From assembly GCA_034667685.1 (NCBI GenBank), contig JAXDQU010000064.1:1-23929 (forward strand): a DNA stretch of 23,929 nt, given 5' to 3'. Source of the DNA: Thermoplasmata archaeon (GTDB lineage: Archaea; Thermoplasmatota; SW-10-69-26; JACQPN01; JAJPHT01). Shown piece after piece: positions 2,598 through 22,538 of this stretch. The position numbers were made by a program, and so were the translations under genes. Position 1 is the first letter of the stretch; each line of letters begins with the position of its first letter. The notes beneath the pieces were generated by a model. It worked only from the letters and a program-made list of their open reading frames with translations. It ran no database searches and was not told where the DNA came from.

Positions 2598-4988
2598 ATG
2601 CCGCCCAAGACGTTCAAGCCGATCGCCGAGAAGCCCGTGCGCGCCATCCAGCCGCCCACGCGGACCGCGCCGCCGAAGACCTTCTCGCCGACGCTGCGCG
2701 GGGAGTTCGTGAAGCGCCTGGAGGACCCGCGCGCGCTGAAGCCCTTCATCGACCGCCCCGCGAAGCTTGCCAGCCACGCGACGATCGCGATGGATGGCCG
2801 CAAGCAGCCGCTCGTGCTCGTGCTGGCGCGCACGCAGTCCGGCGACCCGATCCCCGGCGTCCGCGTGCGCCTGCTCCAGGGCAGCGAGCTGCGCGACGAG
2901 ACGACCACCGACAAGCGCGGAGCGGCGCTGCTCCTCTTCCCCGCGATGTCGGGCACGAAGATGGCCGACATGCAGACGCCCGCGACGCCCACCGACGGGC
3001 GCGTCGAGATCCTGCAGAAGGGGCGCTCGCCGATCACCAAGCACGTCGCGATCCCGATGGGCAAGCAGCACCAGGTGATGGAGCTGACGCTCGAAGCGCC
3101 CACCGAGATCCCGATCGACTCCGCCCCGTCGACGGGGATCGCGTCCAACAACCTCGGCAACCCGCTCACGGACAACCCGCTCGACCGGCTCCCGGCGGAC
3201 TTCACGACCGACCTCTGCCAGGACCTGACGAAGCTGCTCGGGCCCGCGAACGATCCGATCCTCGGGCAGATGGGCGGCGACGACCAGGACTTCCGCAAGC
3301 GCCGCGTGCCGCTCGTGAAGCGCCTCGTGATCCCGCGCATCGGCGAGAGCGTCAACGGCAAGCCGCCCCGGCGCTACCTCGTGCGCGTGCGCCAGGAGTG
3401 GAACTTCCTGGGCTACACGCTGGGCGAGCTCACGCAGGTCGAGCCGCTCGACCCGGGCTCGATCCTCCAGCAGACGACGCAGGCCGCCGAGAAGCTCGTG
3501 TCGAACGCGACGCGCAGCGTGGACGAGCTCGTCTCGCGCGCCACCGACAGCGTCGTCAACGGGCTCCACTCCGCGGGCAGCGTCGACGCCGTGACCGAGC
3601 TGGCCACGAGCGTGCGCACGACGGCCATCGCGGGCGGTGGCGGGTTCTTCCTTCCGCCCTTCGCGTTCGGAGGCGGCGGCGCGGACGCCAAGGTCACGGC
3701 CACCGCGACGTCGCACTCGCGCGTCGACACGTCGCTCGACGTCAACTCCTCGATGCACGCGGCCAAGACGCTCGTGAACCAGGCCACGCGCCTCGTGCAG
3801 TCCACGCAGCGCGACCTGACCAACGCGGTCACGAGCACGCTGGGCAAGGTCAGCCCGCTGCTCTCGCGCGTGACGAACCTCATCCGCTGGACGATGTACG
3901 AGAACTACATGGTCTGCACCCACGTCGAGGACGTGCTCGAAGTGGAGAGCGAGGTCATCGCCGACCTCACGCAGCAGGGCCAGGCGTACCTCTTCACCGA
4001 CGAGCAGATCGTCGACCTGCGCCGCGTCTTCGAGCCGAACCTCCTGGAGCGCCGCCTCGCGCCGCACTTCGACTCGCTCGCGGCCGCCGTGGACGTGCGC
4101 CGCGGCGCCAACCTGCCCATCGTCGCGGTGGACGTCACGCTCGACTACCAGGTCGGGCTCGGCGGCGCCACGGTCGACGTCGCGGTGGGCGAGGGCACAA
4201 CGAGCTTCGTCCTGCGCCCCGGCACCACGCGCGCCACGCAGACGCTCCGGCTCAACGTGCCGGCGAACGCCAATGATATCACCGGCGCGCAGCTCGACCT
4301 GTCGCTCTCGACGCCGCAGTCGATCTTCGGGCCGATCGCGATCCCGAACTCGGCGCAGGTCAACCGCGTCACGCTCGGCTTCGTCACCGCGTCGGGCTAC
4401 CGGCGCACGCTGACCATCCCGCTGGGCAGCACGCTCTCGGCCTCGGGCCAGCCGGGCACCGCGAGCGCCACGCCCGCGTTCAGCGTCCCGCCGCCCGTCG
4501 TGCTCACCGACGCCGACCCGCTGCTGGTGCACGTCAACCACAACAAGACGTACTACTTCGGCCTGCTCTGCCAAGCCGCGCTGGTCGAGCCCGCGCTGCG
4601 CGACGACATGCCGCAGTTCGACGCGTTCAACGGCGACCACCCGATCTGGCGGCTCCCGATCGTCGGCTTCGAGGGCAACCGCGCCCTCATCGTCAAGGAG
4701 GCCGACGCGACGGACGCCGAGGTCAAGACGCTCCTGGCAGACCCGGGCGCGGCGACGCTCATCCAGATCGCGGCGCCGGGCGCGTACGCCGAGGCGCTGC
4801 AAGGGCTGCTGAAGCTCGCGGTGGACCTGGAGAAGATCCACCCCGCGCTGCTGCCGCCGCCCGCGCCGGTGATGCCCCCGCTCGCGATCGTGGACATGAC
4901 CGGGAAGACGATCCCGGTGCTCGGCGGCAACGGCATGGGCGGCACGCCGACCCCGACCCCCACGCCGCTGCCGCTGCCCACCCCCTGA
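2598..4988 (+). CDS. 796-aa uncharacterised protein: N-terminal transthyretin/carboxypeptidase-regulatory-like beta domain, a conserved-looking core with a possible pore-forming hairpin, and a Pro-rich tail
   Basis: Long GC3-rich ORF. Motifs: GDPIPGVRVRL...TTTDKRG; RVRQEWNFLGYTLGEL..VEPLDPG; a Ser/Thr/Gly-rich segment; LLVHVNHNKTYY; PIVGFEGN; IAAPGAYAEA. No signal peptide is evident. Confidence 0.85.
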   Translation: MPPKTFKPIAEKPVRAIQPPTRTAPPKTFSPTLRGEFVKRLEDPRALKPFIDRPAKLASHATIAMDGRKQPLVLVLARTQSGDPIPGVRVRLLQGSELRDETTTDKRGAALLLFPAMSGTKMADMQTPATPTDGRVEILQKGRSPITKHVAIPMGKQHQVMELTLEAPTEIPIDSAPSTGIASNNLGNPLTDNPLDRLPADFTTDLCQDLTKLLGPANDPILGQMGGDDQDFRKRRVPLVKRLVIPRIGESVNGKPPRRYLVRVRQEWNFLGYTLGELTQVEPLDPGSILQQTTQAAEKLVSNATRSVDELVSRATDSVVNGLHSAGSVDAVTELATSVRTTAIAGGGGFFLPPFAFGGGGADAKVTATATSHSRVDTSLDVNSSMHAAKTLVNQATRLVQSTQRDLTNAVTSTLGKVSPLLSRVTNLIRWTMYENYMVCTHVEDVLEVESEVIADLTQQGQAYLFTDEQIVDLRRVFEPNLLERRLAPHFDSLAAAVDVRRGANLPIVAVDVTLDYQVGLGGATVDVAVGEGTTSFVLRPGTTRATQTLRLNVPANANDITGAQLDLSLSTPQSIFGPIAIPNSAQVNRVTLGFVTASGYRRTLTIPLGSTLSASGQPGTASATPAFSVPPPVVLTDADPLLVHVNHNKTYYFGLLCQAALVEPALRDDMPQFDAFNGDHPIWRLPIVGFEGNRALIVKEADATDAEVKTLLADPGAATLIQIAAPGAYAEALQGLLKLAVDLEKIHPALLPPPAPVMPPLAIVDMTGKTIPVLGGNGMGGTPTPTPTPLPLPTP

Positions 4989-5029: not shown

Positions 5030-6094
5030 GTGCGCGCGGCCCCGCTCCTTCTTCTTCTCGCTCTCTTGGCGAGCGGATGCACGGCGCGCGACGTGCCGTC
5101 CCAGCCGCGGCTTCAGTCCGAGCCTCAGCCCCAGCCCCTCGTCGTGGCGGCCTCCGCGCCGCTTCCCGTGGCGCACGCGACGTTCCCGGTCGGCCTCGAC
5201 GTCGACGACACGTGGGTGCGGCCCGGTGATATCATCGTCGCGCATGCGCACGTGCCCGCGGGCGCGCGCGTGACGTGGCTCCTTGCCACGCGCAACCCGT
5301 TCCCCGAGAGCTGGCCGCACCTCCCGCTCGCGCCCGCCATCGTGGCGCCGGCCGCGACGCAGGCCGTGGCGCGTCTGACCGACCCCGGCCGCTACGAGCT
5401 GGCCGCCGGCGGCGCGACGTTCAACGTCACCGTGGACGCGCTGCTCCCGCGCGGGACGCAAGCGCTCGTCGACCTCGTGCGCTCGCCCGAGGGGCTGCGC
5501 GCGGTGCCCGACGAGACGGTCGCGGGCGTGGGCGGGCTGCTCCTCGTGACGAACCACGACGCGAGCCCCGCGCGGCTGGCCGAGCGGGACTGGCTGGGCC
5601 TCCTCCCCGCGAGCGGCCCCGAGGCGCGCATCACGATGCCCGACCACATCGAGCAGGGCGACTACGAGCTGCGCGCGCTCGCCACCGACGCGCGGGGCGG
5701 CATGGGCTCCGCGGACGCGCACATCCTCTACGACGCGCGCAAGCCCGACCGCGACGCGACGTACGGTCCGTTCAACGGCACGCTGCGCCCGGGCGCGGCG
5801 GTCGCCGACCCCTCCTTCGTCGCGCGCTTTCCCCTGCGCACGCTGGACGTGTGGTTCAATGCGACGCCGAAGCTCGCGGGGCCCTCCGACGTCGTGGTCG
5901 AGTTGCTGGGACGCGACGGCGCCGTGATCGACGCGAGCGCGCCCGGCCCGAGCGGCCACCTCGCGCTGCGCGACCTGCCGCCCAACGAGTACACGATGCG
6001 CATCCGCGTGGCGCAGGGCGCGCTCGTCGACTACTCCATCGTGGCGCGGGCGAGCCTCGTGCTCACGACGCCGCAGTCGTTCTTCGATCGCTAG
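5030..6094 (+). CDS. Putative lipoprotein with beta-sandwich (degenerate cupredoxin-like?) domains, 354 aa
   Basis: Signal peptide with lipobox LLLLLALLASG-C, then beta-rich segments (PGRYEL...FNVTV; P.ETVAGVG..LLVTNHD). No copper ligands are seen. Confidence 0.8.
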   Translation: MRAAPLLLLLALLASGCTARDVPSQPRLQSEPQPQPLVVAASAPLPVAHATFPVGLDVDDTWVRPGDIIVAHAHVPAGARVTWLLATRNPFPESWPHLPLAPAIVAPAATQAVARLTDPGRYELAAGGATFNVTVDALLPRGTQALVDLVRSPEGLRAVPDETVAGVGGLLLVTNHDASPARLAERDWLGLLPASGPEARITMPDHIEQGDYELRALATDARGGMGSADAHILYDARKPDRDATYGPFNGTLRPGAAVADPSFVARFPLRTLDVWFNATPKLAGPSDVVVELLGRDGAVIDASAPGPSGHLALRDLPPNEYTMRIRVAQGALVDYSIVARASLVLTTPQSFFDR

Positions 6095-8088
6095 AGCGGC
6101 ATGGAGCCGACGGCCTCGGGTGATAGCACCTCGATGCGCGTGCCCCACGTCGCGAGACGCACGCCGGCCGCGGGCCGGTCGGCGACGACCACCGCGACGT
6201 CGGCGCCCAGCGCGGTGACGAGCTGCGCGAGCGCCGCCGCGTCGTCCACGTTGAAGTCGACGCAGCGCTTGACCAGCACGCGGCGGCCGCCGCTCTTGTG
6301 CGCCGCGAACGCGAACTGGTGGCCCTGCGCCTTGAGGCCCTCGACGATCTCGTAGCCGCTCTCCTTGAAGCGCGACGCGAGGACCTGCTCGGGCGGGACG
6401 ACGGGCGCGACGGTGGGCACGACGACCGTGCCGCTGTCGGCCGCGGGGACCGGCACGCTGCGCGGCGTGATGACGCGCGGATCGTCCGGAGCCGCGGGCG
6501 GCGCCTGGGGCGGAACCGGGGGCGGGGCGGCGACCGCGGGGACGCCCAGCGCCGCGAGGTTCACGTGGAAGCCCTGCTGCGGCGGGGCTTGGACTGGCGC
6601 TTGCGCTGGGGCTGGGGCCGGCTGGGGCGGCGGGGCCTTGATGCCGAGCGCCGCGAGGTTCACGACCGCGCCAGGCGCGCTGGCCGTGGGCGAGCCGGTG
6701 AACACGTGCGGGTGGGTGGTCGCGCTCTGCGCCGAGGTGGGCATCGGCGGGGCCGAGACCACGGGGGCGGGCTCATGGGCCTTCGCCTGCTGCTGCGCGG
6801 CGGCCTGGAGCGCGGCCGCGAATCCGCTCGGGGCGGCGGGCGCGGCGGCCGGCGTGGGCAGCTTGCCCATCGTGGGCGGCGGGCGCGCGGACGACGAGCC
6901 GCCGTCCATGATGCTGTACTCCTTCGACTTCTTCGGCGCGTTGGCCGCGGCCATGTCGAACGCGGCCATGAAGCCGCCCTGGCCCGGCGGCGTGATCGTG
7001 GGCTTCTCCCGCGGCTTGGGCTTCGACGTGAAGACCTCGAACTCCTCGCTCGCGTGGATGACCTTCTTCTCGGGGTCGTGGTGCTCCGGCTCGGCGGCCG
7101 TGGCCACCGGCGCGGGCTCGGGCGCCTTCGGCTTGCTGACGATCTCGTATTCCTCATGGGTCTCGTGCTGCGCGCCGTCGTTCGTCGCGAGCGCAAGGGG
7201 CGCGGGGGCCGGCTTCGGGGCCGCGGGCGCCTTGGGCTTGGAGACGATCTCGTATTCCTCGTGGACCTCCTTCTGCGGAGGCGCGGCGGGGACGGCGGGC
7301 GCGGCGACGACCGGCTCCGCCGCCACGGGCTGAGGCTCGGGCTGGGGCTGGGGGGCGGGCGCGGGAGCCACGAGCGAGCCGAACGGGCTGCTGGCGACGG
7401 CGCTGGCGGGCGCGGCCGCCGCGCTGGACGGACCGCGCGGGAAGGCGAGCACGGCGGGGAGCTTGGGCTCCTCCAGCTCGGGGACCGGCGCGGCAGGCGG
7501 CGCGACCTCGTTCTGGAGGCCGAGCAGCTCGAGGAGCACGCGGCGGCCGAGGCGCTCGTGGTCGCGGTTCGCGACGATGTAGGCGTACTGGCACGCGTCG
7601 ACGGCCTTCTTGGCGTTGCCGAGCACGGCGCGCAGCGCGTTGACGTCCTCGGGGCCGATCTCGGCGATGGTCTCGCGCGGGATGCGCATGGCGAGCGCGA
7701 CGTGGCGGTGGTCGCTGGGCGACTGGACGGTGGTGAAGCCGTACTGGCGGTCGGCGCCGCGGCGGATCGCGTCGACGACGCCCATGTCCTCGCGCTGCTG
7801 GGCGCGGATGTAGTCGCGGAGCTGCTGGGGCTCCAGGCGCGCGGTCTTCTCGTGGCCGATCAGGAGGACGTCCTTCGTGGACTTGATCTGGTCGAGGCTG
7901 ACGTAGAACGCGACGTCGGCGAGGTCGTGCAGGTAGTCGGGCTTGGCCTTCGGCACCCGCACGAGGAGGACCTCGCGGCCGGTCTCGTTGACGAGCTGGT
8001 TGCCGAACTCGAGGGCGAGCGATTCGCGGGCGCGCTGGATCGTCTGCGGCGACACCGGCGGCCCCTCGTCACGGAGGAAAGGCGCCAT
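6091..8088 (-). CDS. ~665-aa protein: N-terminal globular domain, ~370-aa Pro/Ala-rich linker with repeated motifs, C-terminal degenerate Mrr/restriction-endonuclease-like domain
   Basis: Likely start is ATG 8088 (MAPFLRDE), with a TTAATA box at 8126-8131. The C-terminus EQVLASRFKESGYEI...FAFAAHKSGGRRVLVKRC...GADVAVVVAD...IEVLSP follows the Mrr_cat pattern without the catalytic Asp. Confidence 0.8.
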   Translation of the reverse strand: MAPFLRDEGPPVSPQTIQRARESLALEFGNQLVNETGREVLLVRVPKAKPDYLHDLADVAFYVSLDQIKSTKDVLLIGHEKTARLEPQQLRDYIRAQQREDMGVVDAIRRGADRQYGFTTVQSPSDHRHVALAMRIPRETIAEIGPEDVNALRAVLGNAKKAVDACQYAYIVANRDHERLGRRVLLELLGLQNEVAPPAAPVPELEEPKLPAVLAFPRGPSSAAAAPASAVASSPFGSLVAPAPAPQPQPEPQPVAAEPVVAAPAVPAAPPQKEVHEEYEIVSKPKAPAAPKPAPAPLALATNDGAQHETHEEYEIVSKPKAPEPAPVATAAEPEHHDPEKKVIHASEEFEVFTSKPKPREKPTITPPGQGGFMAAFDMAAANAPKKSKEYSIMDGGSSSARPPPTMGKLPTPAAAPAAPSGFAAALQAAAQQQAKAHEPAPVVSAPPMPTSAQSATTHPHVFTGSPTASAPGAVVNLAALGIKAPPPQPAPAPAQAPVQAPPQQGFHVNLAALGVPAVAAPPPVPPQAPPAAPDDPRVITPRSVPVPAADSGTVVVPTVAPVVPPEQVLASRFKESGYEIVEGLKAQGHQFAFAAHKSGGRRVLVKRCVDFNVDDAAALAQLVTALGADVAVVVADRPAAGVRLATWGTRIEVLSPEAVGSMPL

Positions 8089-8150
8089 TGCTATGCATCC
8101 CAGTCCGAGGACTCGCAACGACCCCTATTAAGCGCTCCGAAGTGCGCCGC

Positions 8151-10782: not shown

Positions 10783-10976
10783 GACCGCGTTGCTTCGTTC
10801 TGCCCTCCCGCGCAAGATGATGTGCAGTCGGATGGCTGCGCGGCGAATCTACTCAACTCGGCCGCGTCGAGGCTCGTGTGGAAACGAGCGCGCAGACGAA
10901 CGGATGCGGACTCGGCACGCGCGTTCTCGCCGTCGGCTTGCGACAGATTCGGTTCCGGTGCGACGTACTCACGACG

Positions 10977-10996
10977 TCCACTGGAAATGAGGGGGT
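10977..10996 (+). promoter_or_regulatory. Origin recognition box (ORB) TCCACTGGAAATGAGGGGGT upstream of cdc6
   Basis: Close match to the archaeal ORB (TCCAnTGGAAA plus G-string) in the 400-bp intergenic region before cdc6. Partial copies occur at 10874-10888 and 11078-11088. Confidence 0.8.
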
Positions 10997-11041
10997 CGGG
11001 CTCGAATTTTCTCGGGGAAATCGCGAGTCTCCGCCGAAGCT

Positions 11042-11056
11042 CGAAATCTATTTACA
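11042..11056 (+). promoter_or_regulatory. BRE-TATA of cdc6 (CGAAATCTATTTACA)
   Basis: The clearest BRE+TATA-like stretch upstream of cdc6. It implies a 5' leader of at least 120 nt. Confidence 0.55.
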
Positions 11057-11201
11057 TGGTCCACCGCTACTGGTGCAACCACTGAAACGGTTGCGTGCCT
11101 CCCTGGGGAGGGAACGCGGACGGCGTCCGCGGGGCGCGCAGGCGGTTCTTGCATTCTGCGAGCAGCGAACGCTCTCCAGCGGACGCGGCGCACGGGATGG
11201 G

Positions 11202-12485
11202 ATGCCCCCTTCACCGGGGACGAGCAGGAGACTGGAGGGACGACTTACGACAAGGGATGGGCTATTCGACTCGCTGCTGCGCAGCGAGCCTATGTTCAGG
11301 AACAAGGAGGTGCTCCGGCCGAGCTACACGCCCGAGGAGCTGCCCCACCGCCAGGCGCAGATCAACCAGCTCGCCACGATCCTCGTGGCGGCGCTGCGCG
11401 GCGAGACGCCCAGCAACGTCTTCATCTACGGCAAGACGGGCACGGGCAAGACGGCCGTCACGCGCTTCGTGGGCAAGGAGCTCCAGCGCACCGGCCAGGA
11501 GAAGGACCGCAACGTCTTCTTCATCTACATCAACTGCGAGCTGGTCGACACGCAGTACCGCGTGCTGACGCACATCGCGAACCACTTCATCGAGGACTGG
11601 AACGACCGCATCCCGTTCACGGGCTGGCCCACCGATGAAGTGTATGACAAGCTGAAGCGGAAGATCGACGAGAAGGACGGCGCGTGCATCATCGTCCTCG
11701 ACGAGATCGACAAGCTCGTGTTCAAGGCCGGCGACGACGTGCTCTACAACCTGAGCCGCATCAACGACGACCTGAAGCGCGCGAAGGTCTCGGTCATCGG
11801 CATCTCGAACGATCTGAAGTTCACCGAGTTCCTCGACCCGCGCGTGAAGTCGAGCCTCGGCGAGGAGGAAGTGATCTTCCCGCCCTACGACGCCGTGCAG
11901 CTCCAGGACATCCTGCGCCAGCGCGCCACGGTCGCGTTCAAGGAGGACTCGCTCGAGGTGAGCGTCATCCCGCTCTGCGCCGCGCTCGCGGCCCAGGAGC
12001 ACGGCGACGCCCGCCGCGCGCTCGACCTGCTCCGTGTCGCCGCCGAGCTGGCGGAGCGCGAGGGCCAGAAGACGATCAGCGAGAAGTACGTCCGCAAGGC
12101 GCAGAACAAGATCGAGCTCGACCGCGTCACCGAGGTCGTGCGCACGCTGCCCACGCAGAGCAAGCTCGTGCTCCTCGCCACGATCCTCGGCGAGGAGGAC
12201 GGCACCAAGGGCCTGACGACGGGCGAGGTGTACGACACGTACCGCGAGCTCTGCCAGGCCGCCCACATGGACGTGCTCACGCAGCGCCGCGTCACGGACC
12301 TCATCAGCGAGCTCGACATGCTCGGCATCCTCCAGGCGCGCGTCATCTCCAAGGGGCGCTACGGGCGCACCAAGGAGATCCAGATGAGCGTCCCGCTGGA
12401 GGAGACGAAGGCCGTGCTCCGCGAGGACGCCGTGCTGGAGCCCATCGTCGGGTTCTCGCCCAAGAAGCAGGCGCGGCTGTTCTGA
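11202..12485 (+). CDS. cdc6: Orc1/Cdc6 DNA replication initiator
   Basis: LRPSYTPEELPHR, Walker A GKTGTGKT, YINC, TGWPT, Walker B IIVLDEID, RVKSSL, GDARRALDLL and the winged helix RRVTDLISELDMLGI...SKGRYGRT. The start is uncertain (11202, ~11244 or 11292). Confidence 0.98.
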   Translation: MPPSPGTSRRLEGRLTTRDGLFDSLLRSEPMFRNKEVLRPSYTPEELPHRQAQINQLATILVAALRGETPSNVFIYGKTGTGKTAVTRFVGKELQRTGQEKDRNVFFIYINCELVDTQYRVLTHIANHFIEDWNDRIPFTGWPTDEVYDKLKRKIDEKDGACIIVLDEIDKLVFKAGDDVLYNLSRINDDLKRAKVSVIGISNDLKFTEFLDPRVKSSLGEEEVIFPPYDAVQLQDILRQRATVAFKEDSLEVSVIPLCAALAAQEHGDARRALDLLRVAAELAEREGQKTISEKYVRKAQNKIELDRVTEVVRTLPTQSKLVLLATILGEEDGTKGLTTGEVYDTYRELCQAAHMDVLTQRRVTDLISELDMLGILQARVISKGRYGRTKEIQMSVPLEETKAVLREDAVLEPIVGFSPKKQARLF

Positions 12486-15413: not shown

Positions 15414-15635
15414 GTGAACGCGCGCGACGTCGTGTGCCCCAAGTGCCGCGCTGCGAGGGGCGAGCCCTGCCGCGCGAGCGAGGCGCCGCACCGCGAACGC
15501 GCGCTCGCGGCGGCTGCCCTGGCGCGCATGCCCGCGTCGCGCGAGGATGACACGCCCGAGGCCCGCGCCACGCGCGCGGCGCGCCAACGCCAGCAGGCGC
15601 GCGCGAAGGATCCGCGGATGGACAACGACTGGTGA
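15414..15635 (+). CDS. 73-aa small zinc-finger protein (CPxC...GEPC...HxxR)
   Basis: VVCPKCRAARGEPCR...PHRER provides a C3H ligand set. GTG start at 15414. Confidence 0.7.
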   Translation: MNARDVVCPKCRAARGEPCRASEAPHRERALAAAALARMPASREDDTPEARATRAARQRQQARAKDPRMDNDW

Positions 15636-15637
15636 TA

Positions 15638-16387
15638 TCACCGGCCGCGGAAGAGGCGCAGCGCGAGCATGTGGTCGAGCCCCGCGCGCCGGATGCCCTG
15701 CGCCGCGCTCTCGACGTCGTAGGGCACGCGCATGAGGCGGACCGTGCGCGTCTCGAAGTCCAGGACGGCGTAGGCTGCGCGCGTGTCGCCGTCGCGCGGC
15801 TGGCCCACCGAGCCCGGGTTCACGACGAGGGGCGCGTCGGCCGCGCCGGTGGTGGACTCCGCGAAGCCGTGCGCCGTCCATCCCGCGCGGGGCGAGCCGG
15901 ACTTGGGAAGCGCGACGTAGGGCAGGTGCGTGTGGCCCAGCAGGATCACGTCCGCGACGCCGGTCCAGCGGCGCTGCCCTTCAGCCGCGTCGTCGGGGCG
16001 AACGTACTCGTGGATCGGATCGTCCGGGCTTCCGTGCGCGAGCAGGACCTTGAGGCCGCCCACCTGGCGCGTGAGCGTGCTGGGCAGCGCAAAGAGGCGC
16101 GCGCGCTCGGGCGGCGTGAGGATCTGCGCGTGCATGCGCGCGGCCGCAGCGGCGATCGGGTTGAAGTCGTCCATCTCGCCCGTGGCGACGGCGTGGTCGT
16201 GGTTTCCCTTCACGATCGTGCGCGTCCGCGCCTCGATGAGGTCAAGGGCGCGCTGGGGCGATCCGCCGTATCCCACGATGTCGCCCAGGCACCAGATCTC
16301 GCTGACGCCCTGCTCCGCGACGTCCTTGAGGACCGCTTGCAACGCCTCCTCGTTGGCGTGGAGGTCCGACATGATCGCGACACGCAT
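15638..16387 (-). CDS. Calcineurin-like metallophosphoesterase (YfcE/MJ0912-like), 249 aa
   Basis: Motifs SDLHAN, GDIVGYG, GNHD, HGSP, GHTH and NPGSVGQPRDGD. Confidence 0.95.
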   Translation of the reverse strand: MRVAIMSDLHANEEALQAVLKDVAEQGVSEIWCLGDIVGYGGSPQRALDLIEARTRTIVKGNHDHAVATGEMDDFNPIAAAAARMHAQILTPPERARLFALPSTLTRQVGGLKVLLAHGSPDDPIHEYVRPDDAAEGQRRWTGVADVILLGHTHLPYVALPKSGSPRAGWTAHGFAESTTGAADAPLVVNPGSVGQPRDGDTRAAYAVLDFETRTVRLMRVPYDVESAAQGIRRAGLDHMLALRLFRGR

Positions 16388-16567
16388 GGGGATGGAGTCC
16401 AAAGCGCGGACGCTGCGAAGACGCCCAGGCTCGTTTCCGCCAGCAGCGTGACCCATGAAAAAGATGGGGGCATGACCATGCGAAGAAGACTCACGGAACG
16501 TGGTCGGGGCACGGTCGGGATGGGGTGCGGCGCAACCAGCTTGCTGCCTGCCCGAGGAACGATCCAT

Positions 16568-16796
16568 CTCCAGACCCCCCACCCCATGTCTTCGGCTGGA
16601 GGGGCTGGAAGGAGGGGAGAGGGTCTCGACTCCCTCCTTGCCTCTGATAAGAAAATCCCTGTTGGTTATCAAACTCATCCTATATGATGCTTCTGAAGCA
16701 TCGCGATGGCGAAGCGGCGACCGATCGACGGATGAGACGGAAATCCACGATCCGTTCCAGGTCTCCACGCGAAGGAACGGGGTTGGGGTCGTGGAG
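16568..16796. other. Candidate replication origin: inverted ORB/G-string arms flanking an AT-rich unwinding element
   Basis: Arms 16568-16613 and 16751-16796 form an imperfect inverted repeat, each containing TCCAnnnGAAGnnAnGGGGT plus an extra G-run. The core 16645-16701 has 20 G+C in 57 nt. Confidence 0.7.
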
Positions 16797-16805
16797 GAAA
16801 ATGGC

Positions 16806-18221
16806 TCATGGCTCGCGGGCGTTCGCCGGACCTGTCCGCTGGACCTCGCGGAGCGCGCCACCGCCCACCTCACGGATCTTCTCGACGAGCGTCGCGCGCA
16901 GGCTGCGCTTGACCTCGAAGCGCAGGCGCAGCTCGCCTCCGCGCGTCAGGTCGAGGACGTCCGCGTGGTCGTGGATCCAGGCGATCAGCGATTCCGACGA
17001 GGAGGTGGCTGGGAGCGCGACCTCGTACTCGTCGTAGTCCGGGATCAGCGCGTACAGCTTCTCGTAGATCGCATCCAGCCCCACGCGATCGCGGGCCGAG
17101 ACGCGCACCGTGAGCGCGGGATCCAGGAGCCCCAGCCCGCGCAGCGCATCCTCCTTCTGGGCGAGCGCGGCCGGATCGACCTTGTCGACCTTGTTGAGCG
17201 CGACGAGCACCGGCGCCAGCTCGAACTCGTAGAGGATGCGCAGCGAGGAGCGCAGCCGGCGCGTCATCTCGTCGACCGGATCGGAGGCGTCGAGCACCAG
17301 GAGGATCACGTCGGCCATCGCGATCTCCTCCAGCGTGGAGTGGAACGCCTCGACCATCCACGGGGGAAGGTCCTCGATGAAGCCGACCGTGTCGGTGACG
17401 AGGATCTCGCGCTTCTCGCTCTGCGCCCTGCTCGTCTTCGTCGAGAGCGTCGAGAAGTAACGGTTCTCCACGAGCGTCTCGCGGTCGCTCAGGGCGCGCA
17501 GCAGGCTCGACTTGCCCGCGTTGGTGTAACCTGCGAGCGACACCAGATGGAAGCCGCCGCGGCGACGGTGCTTGCGGCGCAGGTCGCGCTCGCGGCGCAT
17601 GCGCTCCAGCTCGCGGCGGATCTTCACCATGCGGCGCTTCATCGTATCGTGGTATTCGTTGACGCCGTACTGGCCGCCGCCGAACATCGCCGCTTGGCGC
17701 TCGCCGCGCTTCTCGAGGTTGATCGCCTCCTTGACGAGCGGCATCTCGTACTGGAGCGTCGCGAGCTCGACCTGGAGCCGCGCCTCGGGCGATCGGGCGC
17801 GCTCGCGGAAGATCTCGAGGATGAGCCGGGTCCTGTCGTAGACCTCGACGCGCTCCAGGTCCGGGTCGCGCGATCCGGCCGAACTCCGGTTCGGCCTCTC
17901 GCGACCGCGTTCGCGCGTCCGCGATCGCACCTCGTCGGTGAAGGCCTGCTGGAGGTTGAAGATCTGCGAGGGCTTCAGCGCCGCGTTCACGACCACGAGG
18001 TCCGCGCCCAGTCCCACGAACGCCTGCGCCGCCTCCTCGATCTTGCCGCTGCCCAGGAAGAGCGAGGGGTCGGGCTGCGGGCGCCGCTGGATCACGGTGC
18101 CCGCGAGGTCCACGCCGAGCGCGAAGACGAGCTCCTCCATCTCCGCGGTATCGGGGCGGCTCGTGAGCAGCAGCGCTTTCCTGCGGCCGGGCAACGCGCC
18201 CCATCGGTCCTGTTCGGACAT
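16806..18221 (-). CDS. hflX: GTPase HflX
   Basis: FLGSGK.EE, DR..LILEIF..RA.S.EA.LQVELA, G1 GYTNAGKSS, FSTL, DTVGFI...AFHSTLEE and NKVD. Confidence 0.97.
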   Translation of the reverse strand: MSEQDRWGALPGRRKALLLTSRPDTAEMEELVFALGVDLAGTVIQRRPQPDPSLFLGSGKIEEAAQAFVGLGADLVVVNAALKPSQIFNLQQAFTDEVRSRTRERGRERPNRSSAGSRDPDLERVEVYDRTRLILEIFRERARSPEARLQVELATLQYEMPLVKEAINLEKRGERQAAMFGGGQYGVNEYHDTMKRRMVKIRRELERMRRERDLRRKHRRRGGFHLVSLAGYTNAGKSSLLRALSDRETLVENRYFSTLSTKTSRAQSEKREILVTDTVGFIEDLPPWMVEAFHSTLEEIAMADVILLVLDASDPVDEMTRRLRSSLRILYEFELAPVLVALNKVDKVDPAALAQKEDALRGLGLLDPALTVRVSARDRVGLDAIYEKLYALIPDYDEYEVALPATSSSESLIAWIHDHADVLDLTRGGELRLRFEVKRSLRATLVEKIREVGGGALREVQRTGPANAREP

Positions 18222-18231
18222 AGGGCTTGCG

Positions 18232-19896
18232 TCACCCGGGCGTCAGGTCGAACTTCAGCGAGGGGCGCAGGTCCGGATGCAGCGGCAGCGCCATGCCCTG
18301 CATGCGCAGGTCGCCCGCCTGCGCGCGCCGGAGGTTGCGCCCCGCGACGTCGCGCCACAGGGCGAGCCAGCCTCCAGGCGGCGGGTCGCGCAGCGCCTCG
18401 TCGGGCAGCCCCAGGTGTTCGCGCCAGAGCGCCATCCGCGCCTGCGCCGCCGCGCCCGTCCGCGGGAAGCCCTCGATGCCGTCGAGGAGCGAGACGTTGA
18501 GCTCGATGCTCACCGCGTCGGGCAGGGCGAACTCGCGCGCGCCGTCGAGCCCGATGCCGTCGAGGTTGGCGCTCCCGACGATCGCGAAGTCGTCGTCCGC
18601 GACGATCGCCTTGCTGTGGACGTACACGGGCGCCAGCGCGCGGCGGCCCTGGTGCACGCCGGGCGTCCAGAGCGAGAAGAGGCCGAGGTTCGGGTGCTCG
18701 CCCAGCGCGCGCAGGCGCCGCTTCTGCCACGTGGGGTAGAAGGGCACGTCGGGGCGCTCGTTGAGCACCACGAGGAAATCGACCTCGGGCGCGGCCTCCA
18801 CCGCGGCGTGCAGCGCATCGACGAACGTGGCGTTGGTGAAGTACTGGTTCTCGACGTAGACGAACCTCCGCGCCATCGCGAGGGCCCGCAGCATGGCCTC
18901 CAGGATCCCCTCCTCGGGCTCGCCCGCCGTGAGCTGGCGGGGCAGCGTGCGCGTCACCTGCATGCCGGTCTCGCCCGCGGGAGGCGGCGGCGCCGGCGGC
19001 GCGACGCGCTGGTCCACGGTCCCCTTCGCCGCGGCCTGGAGGTTCCACAGCTCGGCGAAGAGCGCGCCCACGTCGCGCACCGCGGGCCCGCGCACCTCCA
19101 CCGTCAGGTCGTGGTTCGGCATCGTCTGGCCGCGGCGCGGGTCGGGCACCACGTGCGCGCGCGTGTCCCAGAAGCGCCGTTGAAAAGGCTGGCCCACGAC
19201 GAAGGCGACCTCGTCGTCCACCACGACGGTCTTCGCGTGCAGGACGCCCGGCGTCAGGAGGAAGCCGGAGGCCTGCACGTTGGGCGCGTCGGCGAACGCG
19301 CGGTCGATCGAGGCGACGTCGTCGGGCGCCAGCCAGTTGTCGTTCACGAGGATGCGCACCTGCACACCGCGCCCCGCGATGGCCTTGAGGCGCTGCATCA
19401 GCGGCACGCCCTCGTCGGGCGCGAGCGCGAAGTCGGGCTTGAGGAAAAGCTGGAGGATCGTCACCTTCTCGCGCGCGCCCTCCAGCGCTTCCAGCAGCCG
19501 GTCCATGCCCTCGTGGTCGGCCAGCACGCGCGCCGCGTTGCCGCCGCTCACGCGCCCGCCCCGCGCGAGCCAGCCCGTAGCGTCCGCGCGCGGGATCGCG
19601 ATCGTCCCCGCGTCGAGGGAGCGGTCCGCGCCCGCGAGCGGCCCCGTGCGGTGGAGCGCGCGCACGCCCCGCGCGTCGCGCACCACGAGGCCCACCTCGG
19701 GCATCGTGGTCAGCTCCTGCGCGAGCGTCCGCACGATCTCCAGCTCGAAGGCGCCGTCCTCGCCGCTGCGCCCACGCGCCATCGTGGCGTCCGGGCCCAC
19801 GACGCGGGGCTGCGTGGCCTCGACGACGAGCCCGGCGAGCGGCGCGCCCGTCTCGTCGACGAGCCGCCCCCGGATGTGCTCGCTGCGCGGCGCCAC
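18232..19896 (-). CDS. Phospholipase D family protein (two HKD motifs) with an N-terminal transthyretin-like beta domain
   Basis: LHAKTVVVDD, HD...EVRGP, YVENQYF and VYVHSKAIVADD...VGSANLD. Start is GTG 19896 or TTG 19923. Confidence 0.92.
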   Translation of the reverse strand: MAPRSEHIRGRLVDETGAPLAGLVVEATQPRVVGPDATMARGRSGEDGAFELEIVRTLAQELTTMPEVGLVVRDARGVRALHRTGPLAGADRSLDAGTIAIPRADATGWLARGGRVSGGNAARVLADHEGMDRLLEALEGAREKVTILQLFLKPDFALAPDEGVPLMQRLKAIAGRGVQVRILVNDNWLAPDDVASIDRAFADAPNVQASGFLLTPGVLHAKTVVVDDEVAFVVGQPFQRRFWDTRAHVVPDPRRGQTMPNHDLTVEVRGPAVRDVGALFAELWNLQAAAKGTVDQRVAPPAPPPPAGETGMQVTRTLPRQLTAGEPEEGILEAMLRALAMARRFVYVENQYFTNATFVDALHAAVEAAPEVDFLVVLNERPDVPFYPTWQKRRLRALGEHPNLGLFSLWTPGVHQGRRALAPVYVHSKAIVADDDFAIVGSANLDGIGLDGAREFALPDAVSIELNVSLLDGIEGFPRTGAAAQARMALWREHLGLPDEALRDPPPGGWLALWRDVAGRNLRRAQAGDLRMQGMALPLHPDLRPSLKFDLTPG

Positions 19897-19967
19897 GCCG
19901 GATGGCGGGCGGCGGGGAGCCAAGGCTCTTCCGATACGATGGGAAGAACGCTCAGCAGAAGGGAATG

Positions 19968-20069
19968 AAAAAGAGGCCCCGCGGCATCATCCGGAAGTTC
20001 GCTCCGGCCTTGCGCTCCGGCAACCGGGCTGCGCCGCATGGGGTCTTTGCGCGCGGCCTTGATGCCGCG
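19968..20069 (-). terminator. Multi-branched structure closed by a 10-bp stem and followed by a T5 tract, downstream of the PRC-barrel gene
   Basis: CGCGGCATCA (19980-19989) pairs perfectly with TGATGCCGCG (20060-20069), with internal hairpins. TTTTT lies on minus at 19968-19972. Confidence 0.5.
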
Positions 20070-20087
20070 TCGCGGAGGACGTCCGGC

Positions 20088-20339
20088 TCAGAAGCCGGGC
20101 TGGTAGGTCGAGACGACGATGACGTCGCGGATCGACTTCACGTTCTCGAAGGGGAAGACGACGTAGCCGCGGTTGTCGCGCTTGAAGAGACGCGGGTCGA
20201 CGTCGTCCGCGGGCTCGACGAGGACCTCGGCGAGCTCGCCGGTGCGTTCGTTGACGGACACGTTGCGAAGGCGGCCGAGCATCGTGCCGTCGTCGGACAT
20301 GACGGTCTTGCCGCGGATGTCGGTGGCGAGGAGCTTCAT
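20088..20339 (-). CDS. cdpB2: PRC-barrel protein, most like the archaeal cell-division protein CdpB2 (83 aa)
   Basis: LA.DI.GK.VM.DDG..LG.L.N...N..TG.L..VLVEP...F..D..G...P...V.SI.D.IVV matches the CdpB2 pattern as I recall it. The paralog assignment is less certain than the fold. Confidence 0.8.
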   Translation of the reverse strand: MKLLATDIRGKTVMSDDGTMLGRLRNVSVNERTGELAEVLVEPADDVDPRLFKRDNRGYVVFPFENVKSIRDVIVVSTYQPGF

Positions 20340-20408
20340 GAGTGCACCCATCCCTTGGTGGTGGCGCATCATCCGTGGCGGCCTTACTTAGAGCTACGCA
20401 TTTTGAAA

Positions 20409-20582
20409 TCAGATCGGCTCGCGATCCTCGCGTTGGCGCCGCACGCGCACCGCGCCGCCCCTCTCTGCCAGCTCGGCGCCCTGGTCCCCCTGGAGGTTGA
20501 CGCCGCCCTCGCGCAGGTTCCACTTCAGGTATTCGTGCTCGTCGTCCTCTTCGCGGGTCTGGGGCATCTTCCGGCCGGGCAT
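20409..20582 (-). CDS. 57-aa hypothetical charged protein (MPGRKMPQTREEDDEHEYLKWNLREGG...)
   Basis: GC3-rich codons throughout; fills the gap upstream of the PRC-barrel gene. No family was recognised. Confidence 0.5.
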   Translation of the reverse strand: MPGRKMPQTREEDDEHEYLKWNLREGGVNLQGDQGAELAERGGAVRVRRQREDREPI

Positions 20583-20791
20583 GGGCAGGGGCCGGAGCCC
20601 ACCGTGCATCCGCGTTTTCGCCCTCGCTTCGCTCGATGAGAAGGAGGGCCCGTGCAGAAGGTGCACGGGCCGGCGGCGTCCGCGCCAGGCGGGTCCTGAT
20701 CCTCGAGCCTCCCAGACCGAGGGGGATCCGCGTGCTGCGGGTTGCCACGCCGCAAGGTACCGCGGGGATAGATAGCCGTTTTCGTGAGCGC

Positions 20792-21310
20792 CTATGCGCC
20801 GCTTCCGCTCCCCGACCGCAGCGCGCGCTCCTCCCGGCGGATGCGGCGGGCCAGGGCGACGCCCAGGAGCGGGACCATCGCCAGCGCGGTGAGCCACGCG
20901 CCGAAGGCGAGCGGGAGGGCCAGCGCCTCGACCATCACGGCGGCGTAGTTCGGGTGCGGCACCCAGCGGTAGGGGCCGGCCACGACGCGCGGCGCGCCGG
21001 GGACCGTGACCACCCGGATGCTCCAGCGCCAGCCCAGCGTCCCGATGGCCCAGTAGCGGAAGGCCTGGCAGAGGAGCGCGACGGCCAGCAGCGGCCAGGT
21101 CCACCAGCCGGTCCCAGCCCACGGCGCGAAGCCGCCTTCGAGGACGAGCCCGGCGACCAGCGCGACCTGGCTGGCGAGGATCAGGCCGAACCCGTCGGCG
21201 CGGAGCCAGACGGCCCCGCTCGCCGCGAGCCGCCTCGCATTGCGCCGGTTGAGGGCCAGCTCCGCCGCGCGCTCGGCGAGGAGCAGCAGGACGACGACGG
21301 CCAGGAGCAT
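20792..21310 (-). CDS. Isoprenylcysteine carboxyl methyltransferase family protein (SrsB/BpsB-like alkylresorcinol/alkylpyrone O-methyltransferase)
   Basis: ERAAEL...RRN...L...GA, Q.FRYW.I.TLG.RW..R...PG....GPYRW..HPNY and RI..EE.AL. The ATG is 1 nt after the PKS stop. Confidence 0.93.
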   Translation of the reverse strand: MLLAVVVLLLLAERAAELALNRRNARRLAASGAVWLRADGFGLILASQVALVAGLVLEGGFAPWAGTGWWTWPLLAVALLCQAFRYWAIGTLGWRWSIRVVTVPGAPRVVAGPYRWVPHPNYAAVMVEALALPLAFGAWLTALAMVPLLGVALARRIRREERALRSGSGSGA

Positions 21311-21311
21311 G

Positions 21312-22361
21312 TCAGCCTTCCAGGAGGCCAAGCTCCGCGGTGAAGCCGGGGCCCAGGGCGCCCAGCATCGCCGTCTCGCCGCGCGCCAATGGCCGCTCGC
21401 GGAGCATCCGCTCCAGGACGAAGAGCGCCGTCGGGCTCGACATGTTGCCGAAGTCGCGCAGCACGGCGCGGGAGACGCGCGTGTCGTCGGCCGACAGGCC
21501 CAGCGCGCGCTCGTAGGCCTCCAGGACCTTCGTGCCGCCCGGGTGCAGCGCCCAGCGGCCGGGCCGCTCGATGCCCTGCGCCTTTTGATAGCGCGCGACG
21601 ACGGGCGCCAGCTGCGTCTCCACGATCTCCGGGATGCGGCGCGAGAAGACGACGCGGAGGCCGTCATCCAGCACGTCCCAGCCCATGACGTTCTCGGAGT
21701 CGCGCCACTGGTGGCTCATGCCTTCGCGCACGCGACCCAGGCTCGGGCCCGCGAGCGCGTCGCCGCGCACGATCGCCGCCGCGCAGCCGTCGGCGAAGAG
21801 CGTCGTCGCCACGAACGCGCGCACCGACATGTCGGTGAGGTTGAACGCGAGGCTGCACGTCTCCAGCGAGAGCAGCAGGAAGCGCTTCGAGGGGTGCGCG
21901 CGCGCCAGGTCGCCCGCCAGGTTCCAGCCCGCGACGCCGCCCGCGCAGCCCAGGCCGAAGACCGGCACGCGCTGCACGGGCGCGTCGAGCCCGATCCGGT
22001 TCGCCAGGCGCGCGTCGAGCGAGGGTGTCGCCACGCCGGTGGTGCAGACGAGCACGACGCCGTCCACGTCCGCGGGACCCAGCCCCGCGCGGGCCAGCGC
22101 GTCGCGCGTCGCGGCCTCCATCAGCGCGGCACCTTCGCTGGCGAACACCGCGCTGCGGTCCGCCCAGCCGTGCGTCTCCAGGTACCAGTCCATCGGCCGC
22201 ACGAAGTGACGGTTCGCGATCCCCGTGTGGTCGAAGACGTCGAGCTTCTCCACCAGCTCGGGCGCGAGCGCGCCGAGCACCTCCGCGGCCTTCGCCTTCA
22301 TCGTGGACTGCGCCACGGCGTGCGCGGGCACGGCGGTCGCCAGCGCTTCGAGGACGGGCAT
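21312..22361 (-). CDS. Type III polyketide synthase (chalcone-synthase-like; SrsA/BpsA-like), 349 aa
   Basis: TTGVATPSLDA, FGLGCAGG (Cys), ETCS, LFADG, HPGG (His), GNMSS (Asn) and GPGF. Confidence 0.95.
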   Translation of the reverse strand: MPVLEALATAVPAHAVAQSTMKAKAAEVLGALAPELVEKLDVFDHTGIANRHFVRPMDWYLETHGWADRSAVFASEGAALMEAATRDALARAGLGPADVDGVVLVCTTGVATPSLDARLANRIGLDAPVQRVPVFGLGCAGGVAGWNLAGDLARAHPSKRFLLLSLETCSLAFNLTDMSVRAFVATTLFADGCAAAIVRGDALAGPSLGRVREGMSHQWRDSENVMGWDVLDDGLRVVFSRRIPEIVETQLAPVVARYQKAQGIERPGRWALHPGGTKVLEAYERALGLSADDTRVSRAVLRDFGNMSSPTALFVLERMLRERPLARGETAMLGALGPGFTAELGLLEG

Positions 22362-22407
22362 CGCGCTCCGATCAGGCGAGCGCGGGTTTGAGGATTCGCT
22401 CACCCGA

Positions 22408-22484
22408 GGGGGTTTCAGGGGACGAAGCCCCTGATGGAGGATCAGAAGACGAGACGTCAGGGGGCTCCGCCCCCTGAAACCCCC
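22408..22484. repeat. Inverted pair of REP-like palindromes (GGGGGTTTCAGGGG-n-CCCCTGA)
   Basis: 22408-22434 reads GGGGGTTTCAGGGGACGAAGCCCCTGA. The reverse complement of 22457-22484 reads GGGGGTTTCAGGGGGCGGAGCCCCCTGA. The spacer is 22 nt. Confidence 0.8.
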
Positions 22485-22538
22485 GCGAGGTCGCCGCGCT
22501 GCGGCGCGGCGAGACGAAACCAAGAGGTCGAGCCGTTC

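Follow-up and report, generated by a model that had tools for sequence, protein, structure and literature searches.

A gene for a type III polyketide synthase (PKS) and a gene for a predicted ICMT-fold membrane O-methyltransferase form a pair that is native to a Thermoplasmatota archaeon, in which they lie on a contig of 23929 nt (C64) that was analysed over its whole length and is referred to here as the window. We hold it about three parts in four probable that the pair is a native two-gene operon of this soil archaeon, is homologous to bpsA-bpsB and dquA-dquB and works by the mechanism proposed below. The host genome comprises 3.48 Mb in 124 contigs and is estimated to be 99% complete and 1.29% contaminated. 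The PKS gene (21312..22361, minus strand), which is present in a single copy, runs from an ATG at 22361 to a TGA at 21314-21312 over 349 codons, and its 349-aa product is assigned as BpsA/DquA/PKS11-like from its translation, Pfam, NCBIfam, the PDB and residue conservation. The methyltransferase gene (20792..21310, minus strand) runs from an ATG at 21310 to a stop at 20792-20794 over 172 codons, and its 172-aa product is predicted to be BpsB/DquB-like from its translation, Pfam ICMT and an AlphaFold2 (AF2) model. The two are separated by a single spacer base at 21311, the junction reading TGAcATG. A first-pass annotation made from the letters of the sequence had described an intact chalcone-synthase-type enzyme with a Cys-His-Asn triad and a methyltransferase starting 1 nt past its stop; both descriptions hold, the triad being formed by Cys139, His273 and Asn306 of the 349-aa frame.

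The PKS is found in 15 of the 21 species genomes of the host's class, 14 times at E <=1e-20 and once as a 53-residue fragment at a contig end, with 46-80% identity across the class and zero internal stops in all archaeal matches. Within the host's order it occurs in the host's own family and one other, and it was not found in five genomes (76-98% complete) from three further families. Across 401 evenly sampled genomes of the phylum, PF00195 is present in 22, comprising 13 in the class, eight of the 19 in family f30 and one in family f33. The methyltransferase gene lies directly downstream of the PKS gene in every one of the 20 archaeal genomes whose PKS is full-length and at 76 of the best 80 bacterial loci, which show 34-49% identity and belong mostly to the Alphaproteobacteria, but also to the Bacillota and to single members of other phyla. 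Beyond the genus, the neighbours at eight archaeal loci include genes for an ATP-dependent DNA ligase, an aIF-2B-family protein, PyrB/PyrI, PolX, Ku and DUF5828; no third gene is conserved among the 56 neighbouring open reading frames (ORFs) at these loci, and the upstream ABC-2 permease gene is common to members of the genus only. Since the neighbours differ between genera and no third gene is conserved, the unit is a two-gene module.

Identity of the synthase and the methyltransferase

The PKS matches Chal_sti_synt_N (PF00195) with 72.3 bits and Chal_sti_synt_C (PF02797) with 61.7 bits, the cut-off being 27 for each, and scores 25.3 and 29.8 bits with the FabH-type families ACP_syn_III (PF08545) and ACP_syn_III_C (PF08541). 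The FabH models of NCBIfam give at most 52 bits against cut-offs of at least 249, and the best NCBIfam row, DpgA, gives 163 bits, far under its cut-off of 425; no NCBIfam equivalog is reached by the PKS or by the methyltransferase. The PKS has no match to HMG_CoA_synt (PF01154), and the only such match in the genome is elsewhere, on contig C101. The closest solved structure is that of Mycobacterium tuberculosis PKS11 (4jao; E 9.7e-53 over residues 2-347), an alkylpyrone synthase, followed by 1u0m from Streptomyces coelicolor, and among the matches listed (60 of 129) all are type III PKS-type enzymes. The Pfam, NCBIfam and PDB results thus exclude an identity as HMG-CoA synthase or FabH, the two families with which the first-pass annotation had feared confusion, and group the protein with the type III PKSs; the HMG-CoA-synthase-like gene is a separate one.

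Cys139 aligns with the catalytic residue of PKS11, a Cys that is exchanged for Ser in the 4jat chain. None of the 75 aligned sequences (20 archaeal, 50 bacterial and five outgroup) departs from Cys139, His273 or Asn306; Phe189 and Trp228 are invariant in all 70 ingroup sequences and position 278 is Lys or Arg in 70 of 70. In DquA the triad is Cys141/His273/Asn306, Phe191 and Trp226 are long-chain acyl-binding residues and Lys278 is taken as a marker of starters delivered by ACP (PMC9827899). The numbering of His273 and Asn306 is the same in the window PKS. As judged from position relative to His273 and from motif, and not from an alignment with DquA, its Phe189 and Trp228 may correspond to Phe191 and Trp226, and its Lys278 to the Lys278 of DquA.

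The methyltransferase matches the Pfam family ICMT (PF04140) with 81.7 bits (cut-off 24), has at least three hydrophobic segments and retains twelve invariant columns across 42 archaeal and bacterial sequences. Its AF2 model has a pLDDT of 96.3, and its top three PDB matches, 5v7p, 4a2n and 5vg9, are all ICMT structures, with a probability of 1.00 and weak Foldseek E values of 0.03-0.13; a PDB search by sequence matched AtTam46 alone (E 3.5e-5). The fold and the Pfam family are shared with Ma-ICMT (4a2n, TMq 0.72) and Tribolium ICMT (5v7p, TMq 0.58). Unlike the prenylcysteine ICMTs, the window enzyme falls below the equivalog cut-off for protein-S-isoprenylcysteine O-methyltransferase (NF040696, 29.5 bits against 160), and that assignment was rejected. 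The partner gene and the homologues point to a phenolic lipid rather than a protein as the probable substrate.

The same two-gene layout, with the methyltransferase directly downstream and both proteins in the same Pfam families, is seen in BpsA-BpsB of Bacillus subtilis and DquA-DquB of the Sporomusaceae. The Bacillota orthologues among the best 80 bacterial loci are 34-42% identical to the window PKS and fall in the same ingroup clade. Unlike the hosts of BpsA and DquA, the present host is an archaeon with ether-lipid genes and without a sporulation context, and the archaeal PKSs form a clade of their own (support 99-100). Judged by the sequence features testable here, the pair is of the BpsA/BpsB-DquA/DquB kind. 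PKS11, the best solved relative, is not known to be paired with an ICMT-type gene. In Streptomyces griseus, SrsA-SrsB combine a type III PKS with a membrane methyltransferase that acts on alkylresorcinols. Unlike in SrsA-SrsB-SrsC, no SrsC-like flavoprotein adjoins the window pair, and a three-gene system of the srsABC type was rejected, no flavin monooxygenase being present in the window or among the 56 neighbouring ORFs of the eight archaeal loci.

Proposed chemistry and supply of the acyl starter

By analogy with the characterised homologues, the products are most likely O-methylated long-chain alkylpyrones or alkylresorcinols: BpsA forms both long-chain alkylpyrones and alkylresorcinols, which BpsB O-methylates, and DquA forms long-chain alkylpyrones (PMC9827899). 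In the proposed mechanism, the soluble type III PKS would load a long-chain fatty acyl thioester on Cys139, extend it by two or three malonyl-CoA units and release a 6-alkyl-4-hydroxy-2-pyrone, an alkylresorcinol or both. The membrane ICMT-fold enzyme, made from the same transcript, would O-methylate the free hydroxyl with S-adenosylmethionine, and the end product would be a neutral amphiphilic lipid that enters the membrane. Judging from the genome content, malonyl-CoA may be provided by the acyl-CoA carboxylase genes and the acyl starter either by a PfaA-like 'Type R' megasynthase encoded on contig C54 or by the acyl-CoA of fatty-acid degradation. From the bacterial homologues we infer both this chemistry and a role of the membrane-modifying or dormancy type.

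The first-pass annotation had proposed to look for acetyl-CoA carboxylase and acyl-CoA ligases, and the genome does encode three acyl-CoA carboxylase carboxyltransferases, one biotin carboxylase and four AMP-binding ligases, besides 11 acyl-CoA dehydrogenases. Outside the window, a 3072-aa ORF for the PfaA-like megasynthase occupies 20299-29517 of contig C54 on the minus strand, adjoined by genes for a FabI-like reductase and a carboxyltransferase (C54:20299-32332). The megasynthase combines KS, AT, a second KS-like domain and two ACPs with KR, a weak PKS-DH signal and a PPTase at its C terminus, and it scores 999 bits with the NCBIfam PfaA model (cut-off 1010). Bacterial 'Type R secondary lipid synthases' have this layout (KS-MAT-CLF-ACPn-KR plus PPTase), with an acetyl-CoA carboxylase gene nearby in Koribacter; archaea are not mentioned in the paper that describes them (Shulse and Allen 2011, PMC3098273). 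Our literature searches turned up no paper on a PfaA-like synthase in Thermoplasmatota. The KS-AT part of the megasynthase is present in 133 of the same 401 genomes, among them 57 of 58 from a family with genomes of ~2 Mb, and in all 22 PKS-positive genomes; where the PKS is missing within the host's order, in five genomes from three families, the megasynthase is missing too (0/5). Because related genomes are not independent, this co-occurrence is a lead and not proof of coupling, and the megasynthase is a candidate endogenous source of fatty acyl chains in place of scavenged or isoprenoid-derived starters.

Several points weigh against the reading of the pair as a bpsA-bpsB-like operon with this chemistry. 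The bacterial comparison set consists of the best 80 loci among the matches listed in the pattern scan, and ratios of nonsynonymous to synonymous substitution (dN/dS) of 0.39-0.66 are judged uninformative at a third-position G+C content (GC3) of 0.96. Lys/Arg278 was located by counting from His273 rather than by aligning DquA, and DquA itself accepts acyl-CoA in vitro despite the Lys278 rule (PMC9827899). Whether a pyrone or a resorcinol is formed cannot be predicted from the sequence, and DquA bears the 'resorcinol' Trp yet makes pyrones only (PMC9827899). The activity of DquB was not demonstrable in E. coli (PMC9827899), and methylation by the homologues therefore rests on BpsB. The megasynthase is also present in 111 of the 379 genomes without the PKS, and it is not linked to the pair (C54 against C64), the two being on different contigs wherever both are listed.

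The strongest alternative, itself a variant of the main interpretation, retains the same enzymes but draws the starter from scavenged fatty acids, as fatty acyl-CoA produced by ligases and as β-oxidation intermediates, instead of from the host's own megasynthase; we regard it as quite possible, although we would not bet on it. It agrees with the four AMP-binding ligases and 11 acyl-CoA dehydrogenases, with the use of acyl-CoA by DquA in vitro (PMC9827899), with the unlinked megasynthase that is common in genomes without the PKS and with the prediction that related soil Thermoplasmatota degrade fatty acids (PMC9287336). It is less easily reconciled with the megasynthase in all 22 PKS-positive genomes of the 401, with its absence, together with the PKS, from three families of the host's order and with Lys/Arg278 in 70 of 70 ingroup sequences.

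A bolder proposal, which we consider rather doubtful, is that these soil archaea own a full pathway to lipids derived from fatty acids. The Type R megasynthase, with its integral PPTase domain and the FabI-like and carboxylase genes beside it, would assemble a long acyl chain, and the type III PKS and its partner would convert the acyl-ACP to a methylated alkylpyrone or alkylresorcinol, a regular part of an otherwise isoprenoid ether membrane. The acyl chain would be handed as acyl-ACP to the PKS much as from ArsA/ArsD to ArsB/ArsC, and the methylated lipid would reside in the membrane, for instance when cells rest or are under stress. In Azotobacter vinelandii, the Type P FAS/PKS ArsA/ArsD feeds the type III PKSs ArsB/ArsC by direct acyl transfer (PMC3098273, citing Miyanaga 2008). 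The likeness lies in a PfaA-related iterative megasynthase and a type III PKS of the phenolic-lipid type within one genome; unlike in ars, the two genes here are on different contigs, the megasynthase is of Type R and not Type P, a methyltransferase is present and there is no known cyst biology. An ars-type cluster was rejected, no megasynthase being adjacent to the PKS (C54 against C64). If this is true, archaea would make a class of lipids that is not isoprenoid, and it would have spread as a module among Thermoplasmatota lineages.

The pair might instead supply a precursor for an electron carrier or redox lipid of the polyketide quinone type (srsABC/pkq-type) rather than a structural lipid, and the same enzyme pair is indeed the core of actinobacterial alkylquinone pathways; with no flavin monooxygenase beside the pair in the window or at the eight archaeal loci scanned, and no third gene conserved beyond the genus, we think this highly unlikely. 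Little credence can likewise be given to a small or non-fatty starter, such as a malonyl-, acetyl- or isoprenoid-derived acyl-CoA, leading to a small aromatic or isoprenoid-tailed product. DpgA is the best NCBIfam row (163 bits) and archaea should in principle have abundant isoprenoid acids, but the DpgA score is far under its cut-off, the outgroup takes in DpgA, PhlD and a Streptomyces enzyme (Shimodaira-Hasegawa-like approximate likelihood-ratio test, SH-aLRT, 95), the closest solved enzyme is the long-chain PKS11 and a membrane methyltransferase partner suits a lipid substrate.

As a separate observation, in one sister-family genus a gene for a 4HBT-type acyl-CoA thioesterase lies two genes upstream of the pair (L096:11335-11760 in G018 and L097:4033-4533 in G020); it could be relevant to acyl supply or be there by chance.

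Archaeal residence and descent of the pair

The window also carries genes for an Orc1/Cdc6 protein (NF001625, 645 bits; cut-off 501) and an HflX GTPase, and the host genome encodes GGGPS. In a second genome of the same genus (G003, 97.8-kb contig) the order ABC2-PKS-MT-PRC-HflX-Metallophos-HisPhos, where MT is the methyltransferase, is kept at 70-90% protein identity. Logan contigs from two single runs (5751 and 6868 nt) span 16749-22499 and 15620-22487 with 0 differences and bridge HflX-PLD-PRC-MT-PKS; both runs may be source samples, and their match stands for agreement between assemblers and not for independent samples. Run X3 from another study (share 0.24) yields short pieces only, of 90-99% likeness, for instance 691 nt over 21362-22052 with 50 differences, and run X12 yields scraps only over this stretch. 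No RNA run was listed for 19900-22700. The flanking 'cdc6' gene of the first-pass annotation is real, the neighbour that it called 'cdpB2' encodes a 94-aa PRC-barrel protein (Pfam PRC, 42 bits), and the chimeric contig that it had named as a danger is contradicted by the G003 synteny and by the Logan contigs. Its remark that the codon bias resembles that of the flanking genes is correct (the PKS and methyltransferase genes have a GC3 of 0.96 and 0.97, respectively, and seven further window genes have 0.90-0.98) but carries little information; the G+C content of the window ranges over 0.64-0.77.

That a bacterial fragment was mis-assembled or mis-binned into an archaeal genome, as might be imagined from soil Alphaproteobacteria of similar G+C being the nearest non-archaeal relatives (among the best 80 bacterial loci) and from a 124-contig assembly with 1.29% estimated contamination, is scarcely credible in view of Orc1 on the same contig, the synteny on the 97.8-kb contig, the bridging single-run contigs, the presence in 15 of 21 class genomes, the archaeal-type neighbours at the eight loci scanned and a best bacterial identity of 49% (best 80 loci) against 46-80% within the class. 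We reject chimerism and contamination on the strength of Orc1, the G003 synteny, the Logan contigs and the presence in most of the class.

The descent of the native pair was studied with two quick trees of the PKS. The first (IQ-TREE, LG+C20; 20 archaeal and 76 bacterial rows, four partial bacterial loci being left out) places all 20 archaeal PKSs on one side of a branch with an SH-aLRT of 99. For the second, five distant bacterial type III PKSs from annotated plasmids (PhlD, DpgA and Streptomyces, Deinococcus and Psychrobacter enzymes) served as the outgroup and 27 near-duplicate bacterial rows were taken out, leaving an ingroup of 70 rows. The ICMT-paired ingroup is separated from the five outgroup rows (SH-aLRT 95), the archaeal clade has a support of 100 and it stands beside a clade rich in alphaproteobacteria with an SH-aLRT of only 88. 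In the approximately unbiased (AU) test, a constraint of all 50 ingroup bacteria to one clan is not rejected (p 0.555), the constrained tree being 2.7 log-likelihood units better; because of this p value, nesting of the archaeal clade within the bacteria is not settled by the tree. We infer acquisition from bacteria from the distribution, in which many bacterial phyla contrast with three lineages of one archaeal phylum, and not from the tree. Of the ancient acquisition proposed in the first-pass annotation, the age therefore stands, with 46-80% identity and one archaeal clade indicating a gene old in the lineage, and the acquisition is suggested by distribution. The archaeal clade departs from taxonomy, family f30 nesting with some f1 and f6 members and at least two changes being forced, and this mismatch implies either that Thermoplasmatota lineages exchanged the gene or that old paralogues were sorted. 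A tree of the methyltransferase (63 rows) has the same split between archaea and bacteria (SH-aLRT 92), and the two genes therefore travelled together.

Several further features surround the pair. The intergenic region between the ABC-2 permease gene and the PKS gene (22362..22538, minus strand, 177 nt, defined from the sequence) must contain the putative operon promoter. It includes a GC-rich hairpin with arms at 22405-22431 and 22461-22487, of 27 nt each and 89% complementary, with an RNA fold of -108.2 kcal/mol (z -6.75; equalled by 0 of 200 shuffles). Between the PRC-barrel gene and HflX there is a gene for a 563-aa PLD-family protein (18232-19923, minus strand) with two PLDc motifs and weak matches of the cardiolipin-synthase and DrmC-like types. 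It has no match at that place in G003, where the PRC-barrel gene and HflX are ~1.1 kb apart. The Orc1/Cdc6 ORF (10878-12485, plus strand, 535 aa) is covered by the family model over residues 125-534 only, and either has an N-terminal extension of ~120 aa or a true start further inside. Two large ORFs, at 2598-4988 (plus strand, 796 aa) and 6091-8118 (minus strand, 675 aa), have a GC3 of 0.95-0.98 and no Pfam or NCBIfam match. In G003, a gene for an SRPBCC/Polyketide_cyc2-family protein (31.7 bits) accompanied by an ABC ATPase gene is located ~4.4 kb upstream of the pair (L091:4640-5122), and the counterpart of this region in the host falls past the contig end at 23929. In two sister-family genera (L093 and L094, from G015 and G016) the genes after the pair are in both cases those for a PIN_6 ribonuclease and a nucleotidyl-transferase, a synteny that holds within the sister family only.

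A polyketide synthase lineage of archaea

Type III PKSs were stated in a 2019 review not to be found in archaea (PMC6688129). Our literature searches, which included PMC6562949 and PMC13587509, returned no paper describing an archaeal type III PKS, although the supplements of biosynthetic gene cluster surveys may list such clusters. Named close relatives of the window PKS at NCBI are entered as type III polyketide synthase of 'Thermoplasmatota archaeon', 'Euryarchaeota archaeon' and 'Thermoplasmatales archaeon SW_10_69_26', and JGI labels close relatives 'alkylresorcinol/alkylpyrone synthase'. The databases thus already name these archaeal proteins type III PKSs, and what is unusual here is the host. 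Contrary to the review, a type III PKS is native, intact and kept with its methyltransferase in most genomes of one archaeal class and in two other Thermoplasmatota lineages. The pair and the widespread megasynthase (133 of 401 genomes) suggest a lipid chemistry based on fatty acyl chains in archaea that are assumed to have isoprenoid membranes, and a part of the 'lipid divide' question becomes directly testable through two small, expressible genes. For lipid geochemists, these archaea are a candidate source of alkylresorcinol- or alkylpyrone-type compounds in soil.

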